Shown: piece after piece, positions 2,438 through 36,113 of the stretch
How positions within the stretch are numbered: position 1 is the stretch's first letter
How the letters are laid out: each line of letters opens with the position of its first letter
Made by a program: the position numbers and the translations under genes
Source: a virus
Direction: 5' to 3' (one strand)
Length of the DNA: 36,480 bases
Virus record (IMG/VR): IMGVR_UViG_3300045591_000151
Coordinates: 1 to 36,480 of that record
The notes under the pieces: model-generated
The model's database searches: none
Seen by the model: the letters and a program-made list of their open reading frames with translations, nothing else
Told to the model about the DNA's origin: nothing

Positions 2438-3643
2438 CTAATTGAAAATTAAAGTTTCGCCATTCTCATCAACCAAAGTATCACCATTTTCATCACATGC
2501 TATCTGATGAGGCTCTTTCTGTAATGCTGTTGTATATACATCAAGCCAATCATCTGTATAGGTATCGCCAACACCTGTAGATGAAAGCTCAAAAAGAGTC
2601 TCGGCACCCTCATTATGCTGCTTTTCTTTTATAGTTGAAGAATCTGTGTACCAGACAATCTTTATTATTGACTCTGGGACATCCACTATCACACCATTGG
2701 AGTTCACCTGAGCTACATCATATCTCATAGTCTGAGATGGCAAAATGCCCGTGCCATTTGTTGGGGTACATGTGAATGGCTGGTAATCTCTTTCAACAGA
2801 GAATTGAATCCTTGCTACTTCTGAATCTTCAATAAATGCCTTGATCATGTAGTTAGCCTTTGCAATTAGCCTCAGATCCAGAGTTGTAGTATAGTAAGAG
2901 CCATTGTCCACGAAATCCATGGAGATCTCATTGAAGGTGGTAGCATTAGCAACCTCGAAGCACTTCACAGTATAATCTGATGTGCTTAGAAGTGAGCCTC
3001 CTTTATAGACTCTGATACTTACTGGTTTCAGATAGCTGTGAATGTCAGCTGCTGCTGCTGATCTGGCTGATGCAGAGGCTGTAATGAGGCCATGTGCGAC
3101 CTTATACTCATAACGGAACAGGGGATCCAGGAATGGATTATAATAAATTGTCTTCTCGCTGTCTAGAGACATGCTGCAAGAATCACCTGATTTGTCAACA
3201 GTTGAAAGCACGATGGGATCTGTGGCCACAGGAATGGTAACTCCAAGCCTGTTATCAACAAGCTCAGCCTTGAACTGCATTGAGATCCTTTCTGTTGGAA
3301 GCAGATTCCTGGTTATTTCCAAGCAGCCACGTTCAGCACCATCCGTATAGATTGTATACTTCCCTGTCCAATCGCTGAGAGTCGAGATGTCCACACCATT
3401 GGCATACCAGTGCATATTTGCCAATAGCGAATTGCAGTGAGGATCTGGCCAGCTGCCATCATTAGCATTAGCTGTAACCACCGGCTTCAATACAGTAGGG
3501 CTGAGAGTCCTATCAGGCTCAAAAGAAGATTCAGCAGCATTGTACACCTGTGTTACTGGGCTGAAATTAGTTGCACAGGCAAGCGAGGCTGATACTGTCA
3601 GTGGAGCGAAATCCTTTCTTATTCTCAATCTTCCTGTTTCCAT
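2438..3643 (-). CDS. Tail-module structural protein, hypothetical.
   Basis: 401-aa ORF with end-to-end packing with its neighbours (1-2 nt gaps). Confidence 0.45.
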   Translation of the reverse strand: METGRLRIRKDFAPLTVSASLACATNFSPVTQVYNAAESSFEPDRTLSPTVLKPVVTANANDGSWPDPHCNSLLANMHWYANGVDISTLSDWTGKYTIYTDGAERGCLEITRNLLPTERISMQFKAELVDNRLGVTIPVATDPIVLSTVDKSGDSCSMSLDSEKTIYYNPFLDPLFRYEYKVAHGLITASASARSAAAADIHSYLKPVSIRVYKGGSLLSTSDYTVKCFEVANATTFNEISMDFVDNGSYYTTTLDLRLIAKANYMIKAFIEDSEVARIQFSVERDYQPFTCTPTNGTGILPSQTMRYDVAQVNSNGVIVDVPESIIKIVWYTDSSTIKEKQHNEGAETLFELSSTGVGDTYTDDWLDVYTTALQKEPHQIACDENGDTLVDENGETLIFN

Positions 3644-6402: not shown

Positions 6403-8577
6403 TTAGGACACGGCAACCGATTCAAGCCAGATGTAAAGAGTATCTGTCTCGACCACCTTGAAATTTGCAGTCTGATTATGGTTAGTAAGATATGAATAGC
6501 CGAAATCAACAGTTCTTTCAATCATTGCAGACTTCTGGCCAAGAGCAGTAGGAGCTGCCATGAAGAAATTCTTCTTGCCTGCTGAATAGTCATCATTATA
6601 TTGCGCAATTATAGTTCTTTCCGAATAGGATTCCTGGATCTCTGCCTTTTTTGCTTTGATCTGACTATCATTAACCTGCCATTTATATGGAGATTCTGTA
6701 TAGGTAATTGCAGGGCTGTCATCAATACCATCCTGGAAATCTTTCACCAGGTATAACTTAGCTTCCTCACATGCCGTATGCTTGCCAACCTGGTATCTCA
6801 TTGAAACAGGCAGCAATTTTTGGCCATTGTAGATCTTAAGAGAGTACATATTCCAGTTCAGCAGATCTTTCACATTCAGATCCCATTTCCCAGACAGCTG
6901 GGTGAGATTATTAAGCAGCATCTTATTATATCTCTTGAAGAACATCTCCATCAGGGCCTCATTCGTGAGTCCAAGCTTATCTGTCCGCTCATTACCCAGA
7001 TTGTCATATTTCTGAGTGGTACCATAGAAGTAATGTCCATCAATTGTGTTGGTGCCTGAAGCAACACGTCTAAGGCCACCACGTGATCTGCCACTGGTTA
7101 CTATGCTGGACCCTGATGTCTCAGATGATCCAGATTCAGCAGCTGATGATTGACCTGCATACTCAATGATAATTATATCCTGATCCTCATCTTTAGTGCT
7201 GTCATTGTAGGTAGTATTCCGGTGTTTGCGCTCCCCGATATATGGCATCAGAATGCCATGCACAAAGACCATTGGAGGCATCAGATCAGCTGGTGAAATC
7301 TCTTCAGTTTCATCAGAATTATTCTGATCATAATCAAAGTAGTTTGAGCCAAGATATTTCCATAGACTTACCGTTTCCGTTTCTGATGAACTTGAAGATC
7401 CAGATGTCCTTCTGGCAGCAGAGGATCTTGCCTGATCAGTAAATCTTGTCTGAATCTCATAGAACCGACCAGTTGCAGAATAGAATGCCAGCCCCATGTT
7501 ATCAAGAGTTGGCGAGGCCGATACCTTGAAATCCTTGCAATAATGATATTTGTTTATAAGATCCTTCAACGTAGAAGCTGCTGGTGCTGCCCCATCGAGT
7601 TTCGTATTAGCTTTCAGAACAACTCTCTTGGACTTTGAATAAGATAAAGTAAGCTTATCGCACAATTTATGGCTGAGATTCATATCGAAATCGCCTGATA
7701 ATATATCTTCCAGTAGAACCAGGTCAACAGTCTTAGCAGCAGGATGTATAATAGCCTCCGCATGGAATTTCTTTTCAGCCCACTCCAGGATCTCACTCAC
7801 TTTTTTTGAAGGCACAAGATCCGAATAATCAATCTTGCCATTGCAGATGACATCACTGCAATTATGCAAGAGTATGATGTCTTTGAGATATTTGCTTTCC
7901 TTGAAACAATTATACGAAACAGTATAGCCACATAGTTGAAACATTGTTTCAAAGAAAATATACAGCTTGATGAAAGGTGCTATGCCATACCCATCAGGGA
8001 CATGTACCGTATCATCACCTTCTGGTACAAGCCTGGCTTCATGAAGCAATGGCAGTATATCGTCGCCTGATGTAGTGTCAGGCTCATTATTTACCTGATA
8101 AGACTCATCATCTTCATTATAGTTGACAGCTACAGGTATAATTCTGAAATCGCTTTCTTCCTCACCCTTATAAACCTTGAAAAGCCAATCATACCAGTCT
8201 GCTGGAGATGTATAAGTAGTAAGAACTTTCTGAGCAAAGAGATCCTTCAGGTTCAGATCTTTATAATTAGCATAGAAATCAGACTCTTCCAAAGCGATTG
8301 CGCATGATATGCCATTCTGAGAGACAGAATTAACAACAAGAGTCCCTTTTTTCCTGAATACTCCACCAGATAATATTGCAGGAAAGAGGTTCACGAATCT
8401 GGCATTTCTACCAGGTCTGCCTGGCTGTGATAGCTTTGCCAGATCTTCCGGTGTGGCTGGAATGGTAGCTGCAACACTGGATGTACCATTATCACTGAAG
8501 AATGAATTGTTAGTTTCTATCTCAAAAGAGAAATCTTCAGGCAATGAGAGTTCGCCTTTATCAACAATCAATTTCAT
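6403..8577 (-). CDS. Distal tail structural protein.
   Basis: 724-aa ORF that overlaps the tape measure stop by 4 nt, the usual position for a distal tail protein. It has Ser/Gly-rich linkers. Confidence 0.5.
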   Translation of the reverse strand: MKLIVDKGELSLPEDFSFEIETNNSFFSDNGTSSVAATIPATPEDLAKLSQPGRPGRNARFVNLFPAILSGGVFRKKGTLVVNSVSQNGISCAIALEESDFYANYKDLNLKDLFAQKVLTTYTSPADWYDWLFKVYKGEEESDFRIIPVAVNYNEDDESYQVNNEPDTTSGDDILPLLHEARLVPEGDDTVHVPDGYGIAPFIKLYIFFETMFQLCGYTVSYNCFKESKYLKDIILLHNCSDVICNGKIDYSDLVPSKKVSEILEWAEKKFHAEAIIHPAAKTVDLVLLEDILSGDFDMNLSHKLCDKLTLSYSKSKRVVLKANTKLDGAAPAASTLKDLINKYHYCKDFKVSASPTLDNMGLAFYSATGRFYEIQTRFTDQARSSAARRTSGSSSSSETETVSLWKYLGSNYFDYDQNNSDETEEISPADLMPPMVFVHGILMPYIGERKHRNTTYNDSTKDEDQDIIIIEYAGQSSAAESGSSETSGSSIVTSGRSRGGLRRVASGTNTIDGHYFYGTTQKYDNLGNERTDKLGLTNEALMEMFFKRYNKMLLNNLTQLSGKWDLNVKDLLNWNMYSLKIYNGQKLLPVSMRYQVGKHTACEEAKLYLVKDFQDGIDDSPAITYTESPYKWQVNDSQIKAKKAEIQESYSERTIIAQYNDDYSAGKKNFFMAAPTALGQKSAMIERTVDFGYSYLTNHNQTANFKVVETDTLYIWLESVAVS

Positions 8578-11279
8578 TTTTTGCCCACAATAGATTTAAT
8601 CTTATTATCCAGCTCTGTAGCTGCATTTATATCTGAATATACGACATAAGCCTTGAGAGGCATTTGCGCCAAAATTTGCCTCATCAAATCATTAAATTGT
8701 CCAATTACATTCATATCTCCAGATGAGATTGAAACATCGGCCACCTTGCCATCAGCAGTAACAGCACCGCCATCAGCATAACCGGCAACACCCGAATGAT
8801 AAGATCCGGATTTGCGTATTGATTCAAGTCTGGCAAATGTGACAGGATTGGCTCTGACCATTGCTGCTGGAGCAACCCACTCATTAGCATGCACAACGCC
8901 TACTTCCTGGAAATCATTTGTTGATGAAGTGGTATAGCCACCAGAGGCATAGCCAGTGCCAGTAGCAACCCTCTGCCCAACTGATTCAGATGAGCCAGAA
9001 TCAGATGTTCCTGTAGATGCTGACTGAGACATAATGGCATTGCGCTGAGCAATAATTGTGGCCACCTGAGCAGCAGTAGTGGCAGCCATGATAGCAGCAC
9101 CAGCTATGCCAGCTGGCCAGCCCAACTCAGCAAACGTCTTAACAATGGCCTGTGCGCCATTGGCAATTGTTTTCGCAATGTCAATAGCCATTTCAGCATT
9201 TGCATATTTCTTCCGAATCTTGAGTTTCTTGGCTTCATACTTAGCCTCAATCTTCTCTTTTTCTTCCGTATTATCGCCAACCGCAGCCAACTCTTTCTGC
9301 TCCTGAGCCTCCACCCTGGCAGTAGCAGCATCTTGCAGACTGGCCACCATTGTATCAAGTGCTTTGATATATCCCTGACTTTTTTCGATTCCATCAGCTA
9401 AAGTCTGGACATTGGTTTCACGGATTTTCTGGGCATATTCCTGCACTATCTCTGCTTTTCGAGCTTGATAGTCTTCTTCTGAGATAAGGCCCTTTTCATG
9501 CAGCTCATCCAAAGCATCAAGCTCATTCTGCTGCTGTTCCTCAAGTGCCTCAGCAGGATGGAGAGAGGCAACAATTTCGTGAGATTTATCTATCAAATCC
9601 GCGATATGCTCAGCATCTGCTTCAATTTCTTTATCTATCTCAGCAAAGCTCTTTTCAAGCTCATCATTCATAGATTTGACAGCCTCTGCAAGAACTGATG
9701 CAGCATCTTTCTCCAGATCATCTCTTGTTTTCCGAATCTTTTCCTGCTGCTTGATTGTAAGGTCAAGCAGCTGATTCTGATAGTCAATGGTGCTTTGTTT
9801 ATACTGATCCGAAATCTGAATCTTCCTCTGAAGGCTGGACTCCTGAAGCTTTTCAATTGTAGAGTTGTATTCCTCTTGGCTGATTTCGCCATTTGCGTAA
9901 GCCGTTTTAGCCTTGACCTGAAGCTGCTTGAAATAGTCATCTGCATTAGCAAGTGCCTCCTTATATGATGTAGCAGATGCCTGCTGATGCTCTTTCAGCA
10001 TATCCTGTTGAAGAGATGCAAGAGTAGTATTGGCTCTTGTAGTCTCTGAATAGAACTGAGCATCAGCATTCAGCATCTTCACCCTGGAATCGACATAGGC
10101 TTTTACCATATCATCATTGCTGAGATTGTACTTTGCAATAGTCTCAGACCATTTTTTTACATCATCGGTTGTATTTGCCTGAAGATCTTCAAGCTCTTTT
10201 TTCGCTGCATCAATCTGGCTGCTATACATGTTGCCTCCTGGCTTTGCCTGTTCAGCAGTCATTGTCTTTATATATCCGGTAAGCTGCTTGACTTTATCGG
10301 AATAGTCTGTAGCCTGCTGGATAAGCTTACGATTATTGTTGTAATCGGCAACGAAAGAGTCTAATTCCTGATCAGATAGGTGTGTCTGGCTCTGAAGCAG
10401 CTTCTTATTAGCATCCATTTCCTGAGTTGCAATCTTCTTTCTTTCATCAGCAAGCTCTTTCTCCTTTGCGATGACATTATTAGCAGCCTCAATTCGTTCC
10501 TCATCCGATTTGCTGGTGTCACGCATGATCTGCTTGTTTTTCTCGATCTCGACACCATATTCTGCTTCCTTGATGGACAATGAATTATTCATCTCGAATA
10601 TTTCATCAAGTATCGTTGCCACTTCTTTGCCGCTTTTATAAGCCTCATTCATATTATTGATGAGTTCTTTCCAGCCTTTTCCGGATGAAATTCCGGCAAT
10701 AAAGGATCCATAGGCATTCTTCCAGCCAGCAGTTTCGATACTCCATTTATCACCTATCAACTGAGTCTGTTTGATCATTGCCTCACCAAATTTCTTGATG
10801 CCTGCAATAGCCCCTGTGATAAGGCCAGCCCAACCTATTTTTGTGAAGAAGCCGCCAAGGGTCTTTTGGGCTGTCGATGCTTGAGAGTTCAGCTCATCCA
10901 TTCTCTTCCTGACCTTTTTAAGCTGGTCAGCAGCAGCAACGAACTCTTTAGTATTAGGAGAGAGCTTCCTGAGTTCAGCATTGAGCTTCCTAGCAGCAGA
11001 CTGCAACTGATTGATGCTAGCACCATTCAAGTTATTCATTGTGGCTTGGAACTTCTTCATGCTGGCATTGACTTCTTTCTGACTGTCAACCACTTTAACT
11101 AGCTGATTTTGCAGCTGCTTGAATTGCTTGCTCTGAAGATCCACCTTGCCACTTTTGTACATTTCCAGAAGTTCATTCCGGATCTCTTTTTCTTTATTCT
11201 TCAGCTCATCAAGATGCTGCATAGCATCCTGATTATTAAGGGTGATAACAGATTCAGTATATACAGTATTTTTTGCCAT
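8574..11279 (-). CDS. Tail tape measure protein.
   Basis: 901 aa with long K/E/Q-rich coiled-coil sequence. It also has Gly/Ala-rich hydrophobic segments (GWAGLITGAIAGIKKF, GWPAGIAGAAIMAATTAAQVATIIAQ). It is the largest alpha-helical ORF and sits upstream of the distal tail genes. Confidence 0.8.
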   Translation of the reverse strand: MAKNTVYTESVITLNNQDAMQHLDELKNKEKEIRNELLEMYKSGKVDLQSKQFKQLQNQLVKVVDSQKEVNASMKKFQATMNNLNGASINQLQSAARKLNAELRKLSPNTKEFVAAADQLKKVRKRMDELNSQASTAQKTLGGFFTKIGWAGLITGAIAGIKKFGEAMIKQTQLIGDKWSIETAGWKNAYGSFIAGISSGKGWKELINNMNEAYKSGKEVATILDEIFEMNNSLSIKEAEYGVEIEKNKQIMRDTSKSDEERIEAANNVIAKEKELADERKKIATQEMDANKKLLQSQTHLSDQELDSFVADYNNNRKLIQQATDYSDKVKQLTGYIKTMTAEQAKPGGNMYSSQIDAAKKELEDLQANTTDDVKKWSETIAKYNLSNDDMVKAYVDSRVKMLNADAQFYSETTRANTTLASLQQDMLKEHQQASATSYKEALANADDYFKQLQVKAKTAYANGEISQEEYNSTIEKLQESSLQRKIQISDQYKQSTIDYQNQLLDLTIKQQEKIRKTRDDLEKDAASVLAEAVKSMNDELEKSFAEIDKEIEADAEHIADLIDKSHEIVASLHPAEALEEQQQNELDALDELHEKGLISEEDYQARKAEIVQEYAQKIRETNVQTLADGIEKSQGYIKALDTMVASLQDAATARVEAQEQKELAAVGDNTEEKEKIEAKYEAKKLKIRKKYANAEMAIDIAKTIANGAQAIVKTFAELGWPAGIAGAAIMAATTAAQVATIIAQRNAIMSQSASTGTSDSGSSESVGQRVATGTGYASGGYTTSSTNDFQEVGVVHANEWVAPAAMVRANPVTFARLESIRKSGSYHSGVAGYADGGAVTADGKVADVSISSGDMNVIGQFNDLMRQILAQMPLKAYVVYSDINAATELDNKIKSIVGKK

Positions 11280-11280
11280 G

Positions 11281-11631
11281 TCAGATAGTTATATAATCGT
11301 TGAAAGCAGTAATTTCAGCTGCATTGTAACCATATTTAGTAGCCATAAGCACTCCAAGACGGTTGACTTCCCTTAGAAAAACGCCACTATACCACGGCTT
11401 CCTTTCCCTGAATCCACCAGCCCCCATATCGGCAAATCTACCATAATAGAGAAAAGCGAATGTAACCTTGCCTGGCTCTCCATTAGCATCAGCAATAACA
11501 GAAGCTTTGAATGAATTTAACAAGGCACCTGTGTCGATAACATCAAGAGCCTTGATCTTAGCCTGCCATCTCTCGATTACAATATCAGCCCATCGTACAG
11601 CTGTCTGGTATGATTTCCCAAGATTAGCCAT
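11281..11631 (-). CDS. Head-tail joining protein, HK97 gp10-like.
   Basis: 116 aa. The segment IDTGALLNSF resembles the DTG.L..S signature of the HK97 gp10 family. Position lies between the packaging/head-completion genes and the tape measure. Confidence 0.4.
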   Translation of the reverse strand: MANLGKSYQTAVRWADIVIERWQAKIKALDVIDTGALLNSFKASVIADANGEPGKVTFAFLYYGRFADMGAGGFRERKPWYSGVFLREVNRLGVLMATKYGYNAAEITAFNDYITI

Positions 11632-12076
11632 TTACAAGAGAGATATTTTCCTCAAAAGTGAGAACCACTTCATAGCCCCTTGCATCCTGGCCACCATACC
11701 TCTTCATATAGGTAATAGACCGCCAATTCCACCCAGCCAGCTGAGGATCGCCATTCTTTGCCGCTGCCAGGATCTTTACCAGTACCCTATGCATCAGCTT
11801 GAACATATCATCATAGAGGGCTGTTTCATCCTCATCACGGCCCAATCTGCCCATAACCCAGATGCTCTGCGAGAATCGGTCAACCGGCCCTTCTACCAGA
11901 TTAATTGTGCCTGTTCCTCTGCCTTCCAGGATGATTGCAGGAAAACTGACAGTCCTTAGATTAGTGAGCAAGGAAACAATAGAATCATAGCCGTAACCAT
12001 CAAGGAAATGGGAATCATCCTTTAGTTCAGCTATTGTCCCTTTCAAGAGTTCAATTATGTGATCTTTGCTTAGCAT
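11624..12076 (-). CDS. Hypothetical head-completion or neck protein. The start is trimmed to the internal ATG at 12076.
   Basis: The track ORF 11624..12235 overlaps the upstream gene by 185 nt. Met54 (MLSKDHIIELL...) reduces the overlap to 26 nt. Confidence 0.45.
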   Translation of the reverse strand: MLSKDHIIELLKGTIAELKDDSHFLDGYGYDSIVSLLTNLRTVSFPAIILEGRGTGTINLVEGPVDRFSQSIWVMGRLGRDEDETALYDDMFKLMHRVLVKILAAAKNGDPQLAGWNWRSITYMKRYGGQDARGYEVVLTFEENISLVNG

Positions 12077-12791
12077 CTCTATATCTATTTTCAAGTGCAA
12101 GAAGCACGGAATAAGTTTCAGAGGATAGGATCTGCTCATTCTCCTGTGGCTTGCCAGAATTAACCGATGCAAGCAATTCCTGAAGCAATTCAGCCTGACT
12201 GAGAGATGATCCGGAATCATCTTCCACCAAAACATTTGGAAAACGCTTCATCAAGTAATTGATAAGGCCATTCCACCAGATTACAATAGCTTTTCGCTGC
12301 CAGTCTTTCAGTTTCTTCACACGGCCATCGGTTAGCACACTTGCCGCATGATTGAGATCTGCATTAGATCGAGATGTCACCCATTTCTTGATATAGCTAT
12401 CTGCCTCGAAGAATTGGCCAAAAGAAACGCCATATAAACGTCTATTCACGCCAGCCAATGGGCATGGAGGCAACCCTATCTCATCGAGTATATATGCCAA
12501 TTGGTCACAAGCAGACTTGACAACTGCTGTTGACAGGAATATTTCTTTCCCATCGTGTATCGCAGGTAGAAGATTTCTTATCCCCTCAGCATCATATAGC
12601 TTCCCTGGCCACTTAAGTCTGGACAGTACGAAAAGACACATCAGCAGAGTAGTCTCTCTGTCACAATTAAGGCAGAGGATCTTGCACACATGCGCAAATT
12701 CATCTGGTGTCATGCCTTCCCAGCTGGTAGGAAATGTCAGATTCACATGCGGATGTCCTATTTTTTCTTCTTTATTCTTTCGGAAAATCAT
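12051..12791 (-). CDS. Hypothetical protein in the morphogenesis module.
   Basis: 246-aa ORF, tightly packed. No motif recognised. Confidence 0.45.
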   Translation of the reverse strand: MIFRKNKEEKIGHPHVNLTFPTSWEGMTPDEFAHVCKILCLNCDRETTLLMCLFVLSRLKWPGKLYDAEGIRNLLPAIHDGKEIFLSTAVVKSACDQLAYILDEIGLPPCPLAGVNRRLYGVSFGQFFEADSYIKKWVTSRSNADLNHAASVLTDGRVKKLKDWQRKAIVIWWNGLINYLMKRFPNVLVEDDSGSSLSQAELLQELLASVNSGKPQENEQILSSETYSVLLALENRYRDAKQRSHN

Positions 12792-31990: not shown

Positions 31991-32528
31991 TATGAGATTC
32001 TTTTTTAGATTCGTTATCGTTAACTGTGATAGCCTCATCCAGACCTATTATGCCAGTTTTAGCTTCTATGGTTTTAGCTGCAAGCTTGGCAGCATTTATC
32101 TTGACTTTCTTACCGTACTTGGCAAAATACCAGTTCTGGACTATAGATATAATCTCTATTCCAATCACTACCAGTATTATCACTGTTTCGAGTGCAGGTA
32201 ATTTAAGAGCAACACCAATGCTGGAAGCCAGCAGGCACCAGCAGAAATATTCGACCATCTTGCCCAGGGTGCGCCTGATAGCTCTTGAGATGCGTATTGG
32301 ATCTCCACGTTTCTTAGAGGCTTTAATACCGAATATCAGATCTAAAACAATGATAGTTGCAGCAATAATCAGAAGAGGCAGCATTTCTGCGAGTGTGTTT
32401 TGACAAAATAGCAATAGAGCAGTTGCAGTGCCTGTGGACACAGCCTCTCCAGCCGTTGTAGCACTATCTGCAAGTATATCTCCAGTATAATCTACATTTT
32501 GTGTCATAATGATATAGATTAAGTCCAC
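31977..32528 (-). CDS. Holin-like multi-pass membrane protein.
   Basis: 183 aa with 3-4 hydrophobic helices and a charged C-terminal tail. It lies directly upstream of the endolysin and overlaps it. An alternative start lies at 32507. Confidence 0.55.
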
Positions 32529-33982
32529 ACAAAATTATTATCATTGCTACCTACAGTCATCCAACCTTTACCAAGATAAGATGATGATGTTGCAGGCACC
32601 AGCATCGAATTGCCAACATATACAAGCAGCATTGCCTTACCTCCATTCACCTCTATCCTAACACCACCTACATATAAATGAGTAGATGCATTATCATTAG
32701 CATTAGCCACAATAACAGTCTTGCCAATTCCGGCCTCGCTAAGTACATAGTTCGATGAACTGCAATCTCCGCTGAAAATCACCACATCGACCGGGAAACC
32801 AGCAGCATCACCATTTGCTGTACCTCCATACAGCGGAATTTCCTTTGCCGAATTGGATTTACTATCAGTTGTAGTCGATAATCTCATTACAACTCCAGCA
32901 AATGTTCCGCTCTGGCCCTGAGTGTGAAAATACGCTGTTCTTGCATGGACTTCAAGGACATTCCGCCCATGATGTCCGAAATAGCCCCTGCACCATATAT
33001 CGCTGGAATAATATCTCTGAGATCTCGAAGTTACAGAGCCATCTTCATTAATGAAATTATTAACGCCTTGCGAATACAGATCACCATATATCCAGAATTT
33101 GCCAGATGAATCCAAATATACCTTGTAGGTATTGGTTACTCCATTAGATGATACGGTTTTCTTTATCACCAGGCCTTCCAATTCAGCACCGCTGCCTTTG
33201 AGTTTTCCAGCAGCCGATACACTGAAGTTATCCCCTATTGCAATAGAGCCATCTGCATTGACTTTGAAAGTGCCTCCTGCAATCTTGATTTGTCCAGTCT
33301 CTCCATCCAAATCAATGGCAGGTACGAAAGAAGAATTTGTGTAATCATCGCTTTCGGCACCATTCAGAGTCCCATGGGTAGAAATCAAATGTGGATTGCC
33401 TGATGAATCCTTCCTGATATAGAACCCTCCAATAAGGCCAGATTCTGCTGTTACCTTGCCTGTGAACTCGCCATCAACTGCATGTATTTTACCATCTATA
33501 TCCCAATAGCTTTTAGCATCAGTTGGATTTGCAGCACCTATCCACAGTGGATATTGGCCGCCACCCAGTCCAAGATTGACAGTTGTACCATCAGCCTTCA
33601 TGACTAAGATCTGATTGCTCTGCAACAATCTTAATAGGGCATTCTGTGCTATTATTAAAGGTACGTAAATCGGCTGGAGGTTATTCAGCTCTTTCCACTT
33701 GGATGAATTGGACAGATCTGAAGTCTTTGCCGTATATGTTGTGGAGTCATTGGTTTTCACCAGGCATTGATATACCCTCCACGGTCTGGAAGTATCACTG
33801 CCATTATAAACATAGACTATATCAAGATACCTTGGTGCAGTCACGCTCTCATCATCATTATGATATTGCGTACCATCCTGGAACTCAGTACAGCGAAGCA
33901 GCTGGCCAGCTAATCCGGTGTCGCCTTTTTGCCCATCTTTAGCACGCCTTCTGATAGTGATATGTCCACTTGCCTCAATCAT
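32519..33982 (-). CDS. Tail fibre protein, second fibre gene.
   Basis: 487 aa with N-terminal collagen-like triplets (GQKGDTGLAG). The rest is Gly/Ser/Thr/Asn-rich and beta-type in composition. Confidence 0.55.
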   Translation of the reverse strand: MIEASGHITIRRRAKDGQKGDTGLAGQLLRCTEFQDGTQYHNDDESVTAPRYLDIVYVYNGSDTSRPWRVYQCLVKTNDSTTYTAKTSDLSNSSKWKELNNLQPIYVPLIIAQNALLRLLQSNQILVMKADGTTVNLGLGGGQYPLWIGAANPTDAKSYWDIDGKIHAVDGEFTGKVTAESGLIGGFYIRKDSSGNPHLISTHGTLNGAESDDYTNSSFVPAIDLDGETGQIKIAGGTFKVNADGSIAIGDNFSVSAAGKLKGSGAELEGLVIKKTVSSNGVTNTYKVYLDSSGKFWIYGDLYSQGVNNFINEDGSVTSRSQRYYSSDIWCRGYFGHHGRNVLEVHARTAYFHTQGQSGTFAGVVMRLSTTTDSKSNSAKEIPLYGGTANGDAAGFPVDVVIFSGDCSSSNYVLSEAGIGKTVIVANANDNASTHLYVGGVRIEVNGGKAMLLVYVGNSMLVPATSSSYLGKGWMTVGSNDNNFVWT

Positions 33983-33984
33983 AA

Positions 33985-34362
33985 TTACGCTATTCCAGCT
34001 ATGACATTTTTAGCAACTACCTTGGCTTTCGCTCTCCAAGCCTGGAAAGCTTCATATTCTTCAAGATATTCAGATCTTTTTTCTTCAGTGAGATCGCTTT
34101 CCGAGTCTTTTGCAAGAACATAATTAGCCATGATAGCCTGAGCATCATTAAAAGAATACCTGTCATTGATGATTCCAGCCACAATTTCATCATAGCCACG
34201 GCCAGCAACATCTACATTCTCACATTCATGATAGGTGCTTGGATCATCTTCCATAGTGATTGGATCCTCGTTGAAATCGAAGAATAATCTAATGATTGAA
34301 CCTTCCTGAATAACAAGCACTCCGCTGGAAGGTACTTCAGATAATGGATAAATACATTTCAT
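33985..34362 (-). CDS. Hypothetical acidic protein downstream of the RT.
   Basis: 125-aa ORF with a beta-like N-terminal half and an acidic helical C-terminal half. Confidence 0.4.
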   Translation of the reverse strand: MKCIYPLSEVPSSGVLVIQEGSIIRLFFDFNEDPITMEDDPSTYHECENVDVAGRGYDEIVAGIINDRYSFNDAQAIMANYVLAKDSESDLTEEKRSEYLEEYEAFQAWRAKAKVVAKNVIAGIA

Positions 34363-34376
34363 ATTTTTCTATAAGT

Positions 34377-35000
34377 TTATTCATCAAAATAATAAGCACT
34401 TTTGCCATCACCCAGGCTTCTTCTCCTAATAACTACTCCATCAACAGGAAAGATCTTCTGTCCGGATTTCTCAGCCTTTCTTGCCTGATCAAGCACATTC
34501 TTTAAGTTGAAGGCATTCGTTATGAACTTGCCTTTCTGGTGCGATGCATCTTCATAAAGAACGCAATATCTTCCAGAGCCTTCTTTTGTATTTATGTCAG
34601 ACTCAAAGTCAAGCACTGTTATAGGAACATTCAGAATATCTGATATTCTGGTGTTCTTTACATCGAAAAATTTCTTTCCATCCTTGGTCTTGAAGTCCTG
34701 ATGGATTCCTTTCTTTGCGAAACTCATATCTCTATTCGTTATAACATTCCATAAATTGCGACAGTTGCCCCATTTGCACCAGCCCCAATAGCTGGCCAGA
34801 ACCTGCCTTTTTCTGACTGGATCTTTAATCCTTGCCACTGATCTGGCAAACTTCTGCTTGATACTCTTTCTAAGTCTCACACCATTGGTGGCAAACTCAT
34901 AACCGAGATAATCAATGCATCTTCCTTTTATGGCTACGCTGCCTTTTCCTATGTCTTTTCTTCCCATCAGCAAAAGTGGCGATTGGTGCCACAATAACAT
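34377..35000 (-). CDS. DGR reverse transcriptase, segment 3 of 3 (frame c): motif 7, thumb and a C-terminal extension.
   Basis: Contains IDYLGYEF (RT motif 7) and ASYWGWCKWGNCRNLW (thumb-like). About 115-120 further residues of unknown function follow. Confidence 0.8.
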   Translation of the reverse strand: MLLWHQSPLLLMGRKDIGKGSVAIKGRCIDYLGYEFATNGVRLRKSIKQKFARSVARIKDPVRKRQVLASYWGWCKWGNCRNLWNVITNRDMSFAKKGIHQDFKTKDGKKFFDVKNTRISDILNVPITVLDFESDINTKEGSGRYCVLYEDASHQKGKFITNAFNLKNVLDQARKAEKSGQKIFPVDGVVIRRRSLGDGKSAYYFDE

Positions 35001-35229
35001 TCGCTTTAACTACCAATCCAGACAGATCATTCAGCCTCACATACTCATTCAGCATCTTCCAAGCTTCATGTTTTGTCCTGGCCAGTCCTACTACATCATC
35101 ACAATATCTCAAGTAGCATTTGCAATGCAGCTTTTCCTTAATATAATGATCGATGTCACTTACTGTGTAATTGGCTAAAGGCTGGCTGGTGTATGCCCCA
35201 ATTGGCAATCCTCTTTTCCCTTTCATCAC
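34912..35229 (-). CDS. DGR reverse transcriptase, segment 2 of 3 (frame b): motifs 4-6 including the catalytic YxDD.
   Basis: GLPIGAYTSQPLANY carries the DGR-type I/LGxxxSQ signature. YLRYCDDVV is the YxDD box. Confidence 0.85.
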   Translation of the reverse strand: MMKGKRGLPIGAYTSQPLANYTVSDIDHYIKEKLHCKCYLRYCDDVVGLARTKHEAWKMLNEYVRLNDLSGLVVKANVIVAPIATFADGKKRHRKRQRSHKRKMH

Positions 35230-35800
35230 TAAGGATCTTCTGCATTTCCACTCCAGAATCGTAATTCAGGATGGCAATTTCTATCAGCTTCAAGAACTTT
35301 CTATCCTTAAATTTTCTTTCAAGAGCCTTCATTACTTCCTCATGTGGAATGCTCTGATAAAACTTCTTGCAATCAGCTTTCCAGAACCATTTATTCTCAG
35401 GGTACCGCCTTAGCATCATCTTCATCCTTTTTACCCCAAAATGCAATCCCTTGCCAGGTACGCAGGCAAAAGAATCATCAATAAGCCGATGATATAAATC
35501 TTTACCTATCACATTCATTATAGCATGATGAAGGATTCTCCAAGGATAATACTTCTGGCTTTTAATCTCTCTAACTTTGCCATTATCATTAGCTATTATG
35601 AGAGTCTTATATTCCGGATCTGGGAAATCTAAATTCAGAATCATATCATGCAAGGCAATAAGATCCTCTTCAGCGTGAAGATTATGCCTTCTGATATGTC
35701 TATTCTTTCTGACCTTCCCAGCCTGGGCCTCTTTATCAGCAAGCCTCAGATTATCCATGTCTGCTACTTTTTCGAGTAAATAACCTCTTCGTTTTACCAT
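35156..35800 (-). CDS. DGR reverse transcriptase, segment 1 of 3 (frame a): N-terminus and fingers motifs 1-3.
   Basis: MVKRRGYLLEKVADMDNLRLADKEAQAGK is a typical DGR RT N-terminus. Also present are KVREI...WRILHHAIMNV, FACVPGKGLHFGVKRM and WKADCKKFYQSIPHEEV. Confidence 0.85.
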   Translation of the reverse strand: MVKRRGYLLEKVADMDNLRLADKEAQAGKVRKNRHIRRHNLHAEEDLIALHDMILNLDFPDPEYKTLIIANDNGKVREIKSQKYYPWRILHHAIMNVIGKDLYHRLIDDSFACVPGKGLHFGVKRMKMMLRRYPENKWFWKADCKKFYQSIPHEEVMKALERKFKDRKFLKLIEIAILNYDSGVEMQKILSDEREKRIANWGIHQPAFSQLHSK

Positions 35801-36007
35801 ACATACTGTCTTTTCAGACTATTTTATGCCCAATCATCTTGCAAGATCGGGATGCCCAGAGCTTTCGAGACTAAACCTACTAGCACTGCTTGCTCAATAA
35901 GAGCCTTTCCGCAATATTTTTTCTGACATCACGGCCATTACTGTCCGTTACGCTGCATTCACGATGCAGGGTCAAGGCGCAGGGAATCCGTTTCTCATTT
36001 CTTGTAT

Positions 36008-36113
36008 GGCGAGAGCCGATGTTCGCATTCGCATTCGACCAAGCGTTATTCGTATTCGCATAACCGAGACCGGCCAGCGAGCCGTTATTCGCAGAACCGC
36101 CCCACAACGCAAG
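36008..36113 (-). repeat. DGR template repeat (TR).
   Basis: 106 bp, 97/106 identical to 36274..36379. It carries 19 adenines on the - strand including 8 AAY codons. It lies between the target gene stop and the RT start and is not part of a long ORF. Confidence 0.92.

Follow-up and report, generated by a model that had tools for sequence, protein, structure and literature searches.

A phage diversity-generating reverse transcriptase encoded in three overlapping reading frames, with conserved start codons at both frame changes

We analyzed a 36,480-nt stretch of viral DNA (IMG/VR record IMGVR_UViG_3300045591_000151, positions 1 to 36,480; hereafter the window), which carries a diversity-generating retroelement (DGR) whose reverse transcriptase (RT) is spread over three reading frames. 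The RT gene runs on the minus strand from 35800 to 34377 as three overlapping open reading frames (ORFs), here called pieces a, b, and c, and the frame changes twice, each time by +1, the minus-strand start coordinates being 1, 0, and 2 modulo 3. The ORFs, the motifs, and these coordinates all agree with a preliminary description of the window, which had assigned the RT motifs to three frames in this manner. We found that both frame changes are conserved in a broad set of related loci and that each of the two downstream pieces begins with a conserved ATG of its own. From these sequence comparisons, we consider it somewhat probable that the RT is made as three separately initiated polypeptides that assemble into one enzyme. 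The layout itself is an already published oddity of Quimbyvirus and LoVEphage, to which the window adds a new and fairly distant member, in a different phage.

All RT catalytic motifs are intact in the window, distributed over the three pieces as listed in Table 1. After motif 3, piece a continues into a helical insertion ending in ILSDEREKR, and its last ~17 residues (IANWGIHQPAFSQLHSK) are piece b nucleotides read out of frame. Frame b has its upstream stop at 35268, 18 codons before the R of RGLPIG, and the intervals to which the preliminary description had confined the two switches, the first of them bounded by this stop, are correct. ORF b is open from 35229 and has its ATG at 35226. Piece b starts with MKGK-RGLPIGAYTSQ, in which motif 4 (KRGLPIGAYTSQ) has the DGR-type SQ, continues through YCDD (motif 5, at 35106-35095) and GLVVKANV (motif 6), and ends in a basic tail, KKRHRKRQRSHKRKMH. 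Piece c, which has an additional in-frame ATG at 35000 besides the conserved one at 34967, reads through GRC-IDYLGY (motif 7, with IDYLGY at 34916-34899) into the thumb, and then into a C-terminal beta/alpha domain of ~105 aa (34380-34700, minus strand), which has no Pfam match and which the RT of Hankyphage appears to share. The Pfam family RVT_1 is itself divided between the frames, with profile positions 19-97 in piece a and 116-185 in piece b; this match, together with LPIGAYTSQ and YCDD, places the enzyme among the DGR-clade RTs. Two G/A runs quoted earlier as candidate switch sites are both present, and the junction sequences of the window contain no A or G run longer than 4 bases.

When the RT region and 25 kb of the window were compared with deposited phages by megablast, there was no match, and relatives were found at the protein level. 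The best GenBank phage matches at that level were LoVEphage, Phocaeicola phage PV4-TP1, and Bacteroides phage BI-TP1 (63% identity). In each of them the RT match falls into three pieces, of which one bears the annotation "reverse transcriptase" and the other two that of hypothetical protein, and three-frame translation of these loci put both +1 changes at positions identical to those of the window. We compared 199 loci, taken from IMG/VR, one genome per species, metagenomes, and annotated phage regions and including the window itself, of which 187 had all three pieces typable. The +1/+1 layout was present at homologous positions in 165 of the 187 typed loci and in 43 of 48 clusters (93% nucleotide identity), which span 46-83% protein identity to the window. 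It was found in genomes of cultured strains (Bacteroides acidifaciens DSM 15896, Bacteroides oleiciplenus YIT 12058, Bacteroides intestinalis AF14-32, Paramuribaculum intestinale, and Muribaculaceae), in the induced phages PV4-TP1 and BI-TP1, and in ~160 metagenome contigs. Piece a is 61-79% identical to the frame-1 pieces of related loci and piece c 46-83% identical to their frame-3 pieces, and the closest relative of the window RT lies on a 36-kb IMG/VR contig. The preliminary description had proposed a comparison with sister genomes, which proved to be the decisive check, expecting that an error or a strain-specific pseudogene would show up as a continuous ORF in them; no continuous ORF was restored, and both frame changes proved to be conserved.

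We also analyzed the ratio of nonsynonymous to synonymous substitution rates (dN/dS) for each piece in its own frame, using 16 lineage pairs. Pairwise values were mostly 0.03-0.2, with a highest value of 0.39; for piece a they were 0.05-0.15 in most pairs, for piece b mostly 0.05-0.2, and for piece c 0.03-0.16. These ratios indicate that all three pieces are under purifying selection. Adenine-specific variation in the variable repeat (VR) has been reported among near-identical Quimbyvirus genomes (PMC8008677). Since dN/dS is low in a, b, and c, since mismatches between the template repeat (TR) and VR of the window are A-specific, and since A-specific VR variation has been published, we take the RT, on these indirect grounds, to be functional. 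Together, the conservation of both changes in sister genomes and the purifying selection on all pieces refute sequence error and recent inactivation, and the layout is real, neither an assembly error nor a recent pseudogene.

To compare the junctions, we used the 42 lineages that are split at both. At junction 1, a frame-b ATG is present in 42 of 42 lineages, 4-8 codons before the R of RGxPIG, and also in four more distant lineages that are split at junction 1 only. At junction 2, 41 of the 42 have a frame-c ATG, 12-22 codons before the I of IDFLGY, the exception being L191, with only GTG. The old-frame codon that the ATG overlaps is NAT in 83 of 83 cases, compared with 57% NAT among NAY codons elsewhere in the same genes. 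The residue encoded by this codon varies (N, D, or Y at junction 1; N, H, Y, or D at junction 2), and so does the one after it (E, D, or A at junction 1; G, E, or D at junction 2); the latter junction has 18 distinct codon pairs. By comparison, a fortuitous +1-frame ATG at the invariant D-D of YCDD is retained in only 83% of lineages, and a scan of every alignment window, in three alignments, found a +1-frame ATG in at least 97% of lineages at the two junctions only. Because the overlapped codon is always NAT though its amino acid varies, it is the two ATGs, and not the protein of the old frame, on which selection acts.

Some lineages have a new-frame stop immediately before the ATG (junction 1 in L014, L004, L072, L165, and L093; junction 2 in L004 and L105), and the Met there therefore cannot be an internal residue of a frameshift product. 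Unsplit or fused relatives have no equivalent ATG at the unsplit junction; P0001, an unsplit relative, has only a Met directly before IDFLGY. Each downstream piece of the split RTs thus has its own conserved start codon, as would a piece of a split enzyme. The preliminary description had overlooked the conserved ATG at the start of both pieces, and hence separate initiation, as well as the earlier publication of the layout for Quimbyvirus.

The sequence around the two ATGs has further features in common. Each ATG is followed by purine-rich, nearly T-free sequence, which extends for ~30 nt after the frame-c ATG. When the folding energy of 40-nt segments was averaged over the 42 lineages, it was weakest at the two ATGs, at -2.4 and -1.8 kcal/mol, compared to a gene-wide mean of -6.0 kcal/mol; gene starts in the window average about -2.7 kcal/mol, against a window-wide -5.4 kcal/mol. 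A basic motif of the RKR(Q/K)R(G/S) type, with minor variants such as RRRQRG, is kept in frame b in nearly all 42 lineages, whereas the frame-c reading of this stretch is poorly conserved; frame b is thus protein-constrained through this motif, near its stop. The preliminary description had singled out two same-direction shifts in similar sequence contexts. Both changes are indeed +1 and the two purine runs are similar, but their likeness is explained by the coding of Lys and Arg.

The basic tail is present only in lineages split at junction 2 and is absent from unsplit and b+c-fused relatives. A search of a library of 1.84 billion proteins recovered at least ten divergent clusters, at 50% identity, that are represented by b ORFs standing alone (100-115 aa); these have the M..G.PIG start and the basic tail. 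Overlaps between consecutive pieces are retained in all lineages, with a median of 107 nt at junction 1 (a/b overlap range 38-278 nt) and 59 nt at junction 2.

We then placed the split points on a structure model of the unsplit relative P0001, predicted with AlphaFold2 (AF2) at a predicted local distance difference test score (pLDDT) of 88. Its best fold match by Foldseek is the Bordetella DGR RT 8ub7 (E 1e-18, target-normalised TM 0.86, 25% identity), and the three RT pieces align in order to 8ub7 through this relative. In the model, the loop that contains junction 1 follows a family-specific helix (183-198) and precedes RGIPIG (motif 4), and junction 2 falls in a hairpin loop (292-299) between motifs 6 and 7, so that both split points are predicted to be structurally reasonable, in loops. 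The thumb helices of the model are followed by a disordered linker and then by the separate C-terminal domain.

The syntenic module of the split RTs also exists with unsplit RTs, which are 475-492 aa long. In P0003 (L208/L207; two assemblies, possibly of one sample), a and b are fused in frame, one base having been lost in a CGGAAA(G)AGAGG run; this relative has kept the former frame-b ATG, and its piece c remains in the +1 frame. Lineages split at junction 1 only are more distant (about 43-63% identity in piece a), and those split at both junctions make up a large inner group. The comparison suggests that junction 1 is older than junction 2 and that junction 2 arose with the insertion of roughly 30-55 nt of purine-rich sequence. 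Since a one-base deletion would fuse the frames, and the split nevertheless persists in 43 of 48 clusters, the distribution argues that the arrangement is maintained by selection.

Some loci depart from the common layout. Among those with odd frames, some have stray homopolymer indels, several of them on contigs of low assembly coverage, and the rest have true defects elsewhere in the gene. Frame-restored variants in the LoVEphage cluster were considered as natural experiments and set aside as uninformative, being mostly stray homopolymer indels (again, several on low-coverage contigs) or deletions elsewhere. Dead RTs were observed in a LoVEphage-like sublineage (L013, L016, L092, L094, and L185), which has lost 11 nt (GCGATGATAAC) of piece b, near nt 705 of the RT, and with them the CDD of YCDD; intact three-frame RTs are found alongside. 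In P0002 and P0005, both of the LoVEphage type, large in-frame deletions join piece a directly to the C-terminal domain, which suggests that defective RT copies circulate in LoVEphage populations. L035 (Lepagella muris NM04_E33) has a third +1 change in piece c, at ~3188-3210, in a poly-A run before the invariant Met of N-D-M-S-F. This change would detach the C-terminal domain as a fourth ORF and could be an error, decay, or a further split.

According to the reading that we favor, the RT would be a naturally split gene, with three overlapping ORFs in successive +1 frames, each translated from its own ATG into predicted products of about 25 kDa (piece a), about 12 kDa (piece b), and about 23 kDa (piece c). 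Through non-covalent assembly, these products would form a single active RT that mutates at adenines. The stretch after each internal ATG, purine-rich and nearly without T, would encode basic residues in the outgoing frame and, at the same time, keep the mRNA locally unstructured, allowing a start by the Shine-Dalgarno-poor ribosomes of Bacteroidota, which are thought to need it. Translation start at both internal ATGs and association of the three pieces we infer from the conservation patterns described above. For the wider proposal, that across the Bacteroidales phage DGR family the RT is a natural heterotrimer of fingers, palm, and thumb plus C-terminal domain, in which the basic palm tail is a new RNA-binding or assembly element, we would put the chances at about even. 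The idea that the tail of the palm piece stands in for a missing Avd protein is speculation.

Several points weigh against three separate chains. We know of no RT that works in this way, and a full-text literature search on split reverse transcriptase returned nothing relevant. The 104-residue palm fragment may not be stable alone, and piece a would carry a variable out-of-frame tail, given the 38- to 278-nt overlap, in which there is no sign of selection for an early stop. No lineage with non-overlapping or rearranged pieces was found among the 199 loci or the lineages in which b and c are joined and only a is separate. The a+b fusion of P0003 (L208) equals the product of a +1 slip at AAA-G, so that a chain in which a and b are joined covalently through a very short linker may be viable. 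Finally, in the window by itself the b and c ATGs have unremarkable folding energies (-4.7 and -3.6 kcal/mol), the dip being seen only in the 42-lineage average.

The strongest alternative, less likely in our view but still a live one, is that ribosomes shift by +1 at two programmed sites and so make a single RT of about 470 aa from a, b, and c, with the low efficiency of passing two sites throttling the dose of the mutagenic enzyme. A single chain is the norm for RTs, and the unsplit relatives of 475-492 aa share the syntenic module. The two +1 changes both fall within purine runs rich in Lys and Arg codons. Some lineages have plausible slip sites, AAA-G at junction 1 (L005, L006, and L014) and AAA-AGG at junction 2 (the window and L004), and P0003, with a and b in frame, matches the product predicted for the AAA-G slip. 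Loss of a single base would be enough to fuse the frames, and the persistence of the split suggests, on this account, that the frame change itself is selected. Frameshifting is also the reading of the prior literature (PMC8008677).

A search for frameshift signals did not bear this out. Across lineages, no slippery codon is shared at either junction: the possible P-site codons include GAA, CAG, AAG, and AAA at junction 1 and AAG, GGT, AGC, CGA, and AAC at junction 2, and most codons at the last possible position, such as AAG-A, GGT-A, and AGC-C, are unable to re-pair in +1. A shared slippery heptamer, including the AAG-AGG or AAA-AGG idea taken from the window, was rejected as not conserved across lineages. 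RNAalifold found no consensus structure past either junction that could act as a downstream stimulator, although single sequences do fold. A hungry-codon model of the Ty1 type was rejected as well, AGG occurring at 12.2 per 1000 codons in the genes of this phage, equal to AGA and among the two commonest Arg codons, and the window having no tRNA genes. Stimulation of the +1 shift by a stop codon fits the 27 of 42 lineages in which the frame-b stop lies across codons 1 and 2 of the IDFLGY motif and fails because the stop is elsewhere in the other 15 (range -7 to +179 nt relative to the motif start). As for transcriptional slippage, there is no homopolymer longer than 4 bases at the window junctions, and LoVEphage has none at junction 1.

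Thus, neither a conserved slippery sequence nor a stimulator, be it a rare A-site codon, a fixed stop, or an RNA structure, was found at the junctions, and double frameshifting leaves unexplained why new-frame ATGs are near-universal and why the synonymous choice is constrained to NAT. Recoding as a throttle on RT dosage, which the preliminary description had put forward, has no conserved signal in its support and is the less likely reading; the conserved start codons point instead to a multi-chain split RT.

A mixed or coupled arrangement seems to us improbable. Here, the starts of b and c would depend on upstream translation, through reinitiation or coupling, or separate pieces would be made together with a minor full-length frameshifted form, the two having different roles. 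The ATGs are conserved, the overlaps are kept in all lineages at the medians given above, and fused and unfused forms coexist in the family, all of which such an arrangement would accommodate. The upstream ORF, however, stops 38-278 nt past the next ATG, which is long for backward reinitiation, and no data single out coupling.

We give very little credence to a recently inactivated RT with a frozen VR, the second of the explanations first put forward for this locus. Dead RTs do exist in the family (the 11-nt CDD deletion, at five loci), and an older survey lists a frameshifted Bacteroides DGR RT as inactivated (PMC3521204), but the same two changes recur in 43 of 48 clusters over lineages of 46-83% protein identity, dN/dS is mostly 0.03-0.2 per piece, the catalytic motifs are intact, and the TR/VR core is free of non-A mismatches. 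Sequencing or assembly indels at homopolymer-like purine runs can be dismissed almost entirely: single-base indels in A runs do account for the sporadic odd-frame loci of the LoVEphage cluster, several of which are on low-coverage contigs, but the identical layout is found in independent isolates, induced phages, and the ~160 metagenome contigs, the window junctions lack A or G runs of more than 4 bases, and none of the window's remaining long ORFs, the longest of 975 aa, is interrupted.

The features of the RT and of the cassette around it are collected in Table 1. TR and VR form a direct repeat of 85% identity, and their mismatches lie at TR adenines in 9 of 9 cases in the first ~106 nt (the core) and in 16 of 19 overall. 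The DGR target gene (36215-36480, minus strand) has its stop at 36215, and its ORF continues past the end of the window, so that the last 87 codons are present, including VR, which ends ~40 nt before the stop. DGR targets typically have a C-type lectin fold; the 87 available residues of this incomplete ORF gave no Pfam hit, and the LoVEphage counterpart is annotated as a tail collar fibre or Mtd_N protein. An Avd-like accessory gene was sought among the RT-neighbouring ORF and all small ORFs of the window, without a Pfam hit, the upstream flank of the target gene lying outside the window.

Table 1. Features of the split RT gene and its surroundings in the window (window coordinates)
Feature	Position	Strand	Description
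RT piece a	35156..35800	-	From ORF list; 214 aa; fingers and RT motifs 1-3
RT piece b	34912..35226	-	From conserved ATG; 104 aa; motifs 4-6 (motif 5 = catalytic YCDD) and basic tail
RT piece c	34377..34967	-	From conserved ATG; 196 aa; 17-residue leader, motif 7, thumb, C-terminal beta/alpha domain
Frame-b opening ATG	35224..35226	-	Overlaps frame-a codons GAT GAA (D-E)
Frame-c opening ATG	34965..34967	-	Overlaps frame-b codons GAT GGG (D-G)
Basic motif RKRQRS, piece b tail	34933..34950	-	Read in frame b; overlaps piece c leader
TR	35987..36113	-	Between target gene and RT; adenine-rich (AAC/AAT codons)
VR	36253..36379	-	3' end of DGR target gene; direct repeat of TR
Acidic 125-aa ORF	33985..34362	-	Directly downstream of RT; 41% identical to LoVEphage/PV4-TP1 gp27
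Tail-fibre-like 487-aa ORF	32519-33982	-	After acidic ORF, conserved order; 30% identical to gp28

The acidic ORF downstream of the RT has no Pfam or PHROG hit, and an ORF of 119-131 aa also follows the RT in PV4-TP1/LoVEphage (L001-L003), L199, L207, and L209. The syntenic module comprises the target gene, TR, the RT, the ORF of ~125 aa, and the tail-fibre-like ORF. The window as a whole is a temperate phage or prophage and encodes an integrase, a helix-turn-helix regulator, a GH108 endolysin, a head protease, and a tape-measure protein. Two short ORFs at 11281-12235 (minus strand), in different frames, share 8 nt; they lie directly upstream of the tape-measure gene (8574-11279), where a tail-chaperone -1 frameshift is usually located.

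The RT layout of Quimbyvirus was described by Benler et al. (2021, Microbiome 9:78; PMC8008677), who proposed two programmed frameshifts. Their account gives no sites, no direction, and no comparative test; it assumes frameshifting, and the conserved internal ATGs are not described in it. Quimbyvirus and LoVEphage both match the same Bacteroides dorei prophage, CP011531. A word check of two LoVEphage papers found no mention of frame changes, and full-text literature searches found no other paper on the three-frame RT. In a 2012 survey of DGRs (PMC3521204, Fig. 4C), the RT of Bacteroides sp. 9_1_42FAA is given as inactive owing to a frameshift mutation; what was taken there for a defect may be the conserved three-frame layout. 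In the output of gene callers and DGR finders, such RTs come out as one short RT plus hypothetical proteins. Because of these annotations, and of a survey that counts a frameshifted RT as inactivated, this large group of active DGRs has probably been counted too low or labelled wrongly.

The DGR of LoVEphage drives the diversification of tail proteins, and LoVEphage is the most common of the cultured temperate phage species surveyed, being found in about 8% of 1,241 human gut viromes (PMC12629997). If the RT does consist of three chains, its architecture would be unprecedented and, as far as is known, the first multi-chain split RT. It would also represent a new way of controlling a mutagenic enzyme, with a bearing on RT folding, on tolerance of splitting, on dosage control, and on the engineering of split or inducible DGR mutators. 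If it is instead produced by a double +1 frameshift, it would be a rare case of recoding in Bacteroidota, in which Shine-Dalgarno-stimulated shifting is not expected.

Of the known systems, the RT of Quimbyvirus and LoVEphage (GenBank MW660583, OY731433, PQ571302, and PQ571265) is the most similar, with the same junction positions, three overlapping frames (0/+1/+2), and breaks between motifs 3 and 4 and between motifs 6 and 7. It shares with the window the basic tail on piece b, the C-terminal domain, and synteny, at 63% RT identity. The Quimbyvirus genomes, however, are 71-75 kb in length, and the window is a different phage, the closest relative of its RT being on the 36-kb contig. The RT of Bordetella phage BPP-1 (bRT; PDB 8ub7) is the best PDB match, in sequence and in fold, of the unsplit member of the family, and has in common with the window the IGxxxSQ signature of motif 4 and the A-specific pattern of TR-to-VR mutagenesis. 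In contrast to the window RT, with its three frames and no Avd-like gene found in the window, bRT is a single chain of 328 aa that works with a separate basic protein, Avd; relative to bRT, the window RT has an added helical insertion after motif 3, the basic tail on b, and the C-terminal domain of ~105 aa on c. Hankyphage (Bacteroides phage p00), also a temperate Bacteroides phage, has an RT that tblastn aligns over residues 1-472 of the reconstructed window RT, including the C-terminal domain, but this RT is a single uninterrupted ORF and only 31% identical.

Known +1 shifts include those of bacterial prfB (CUU UGA C), yeast Ty1 (CUU AGG C), and the capsid and tail genes of Listeria phage PSA. 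In these systems the shift heptamer is strictly conserved and is in most cases accompanied by a slow A-site codon or a stimulator, and no start codon is required in the new frame. The RT described here resembles them in the +1 direction and in having AGG or a stop near some junctions, but differs in that no heptamer is conserved. To our knowledge, no three-piece RT has been described before. The family-B DNA polymerase of Methanothermobacter is encoded by two genes, which are separate and non-overlapping, and its separately translated pieces assemble. In both that polymerase and the proposed split RT, pieces would come together into a polymerase, whereas the RT ORFs analyzed here overlap one another in shifted frames.

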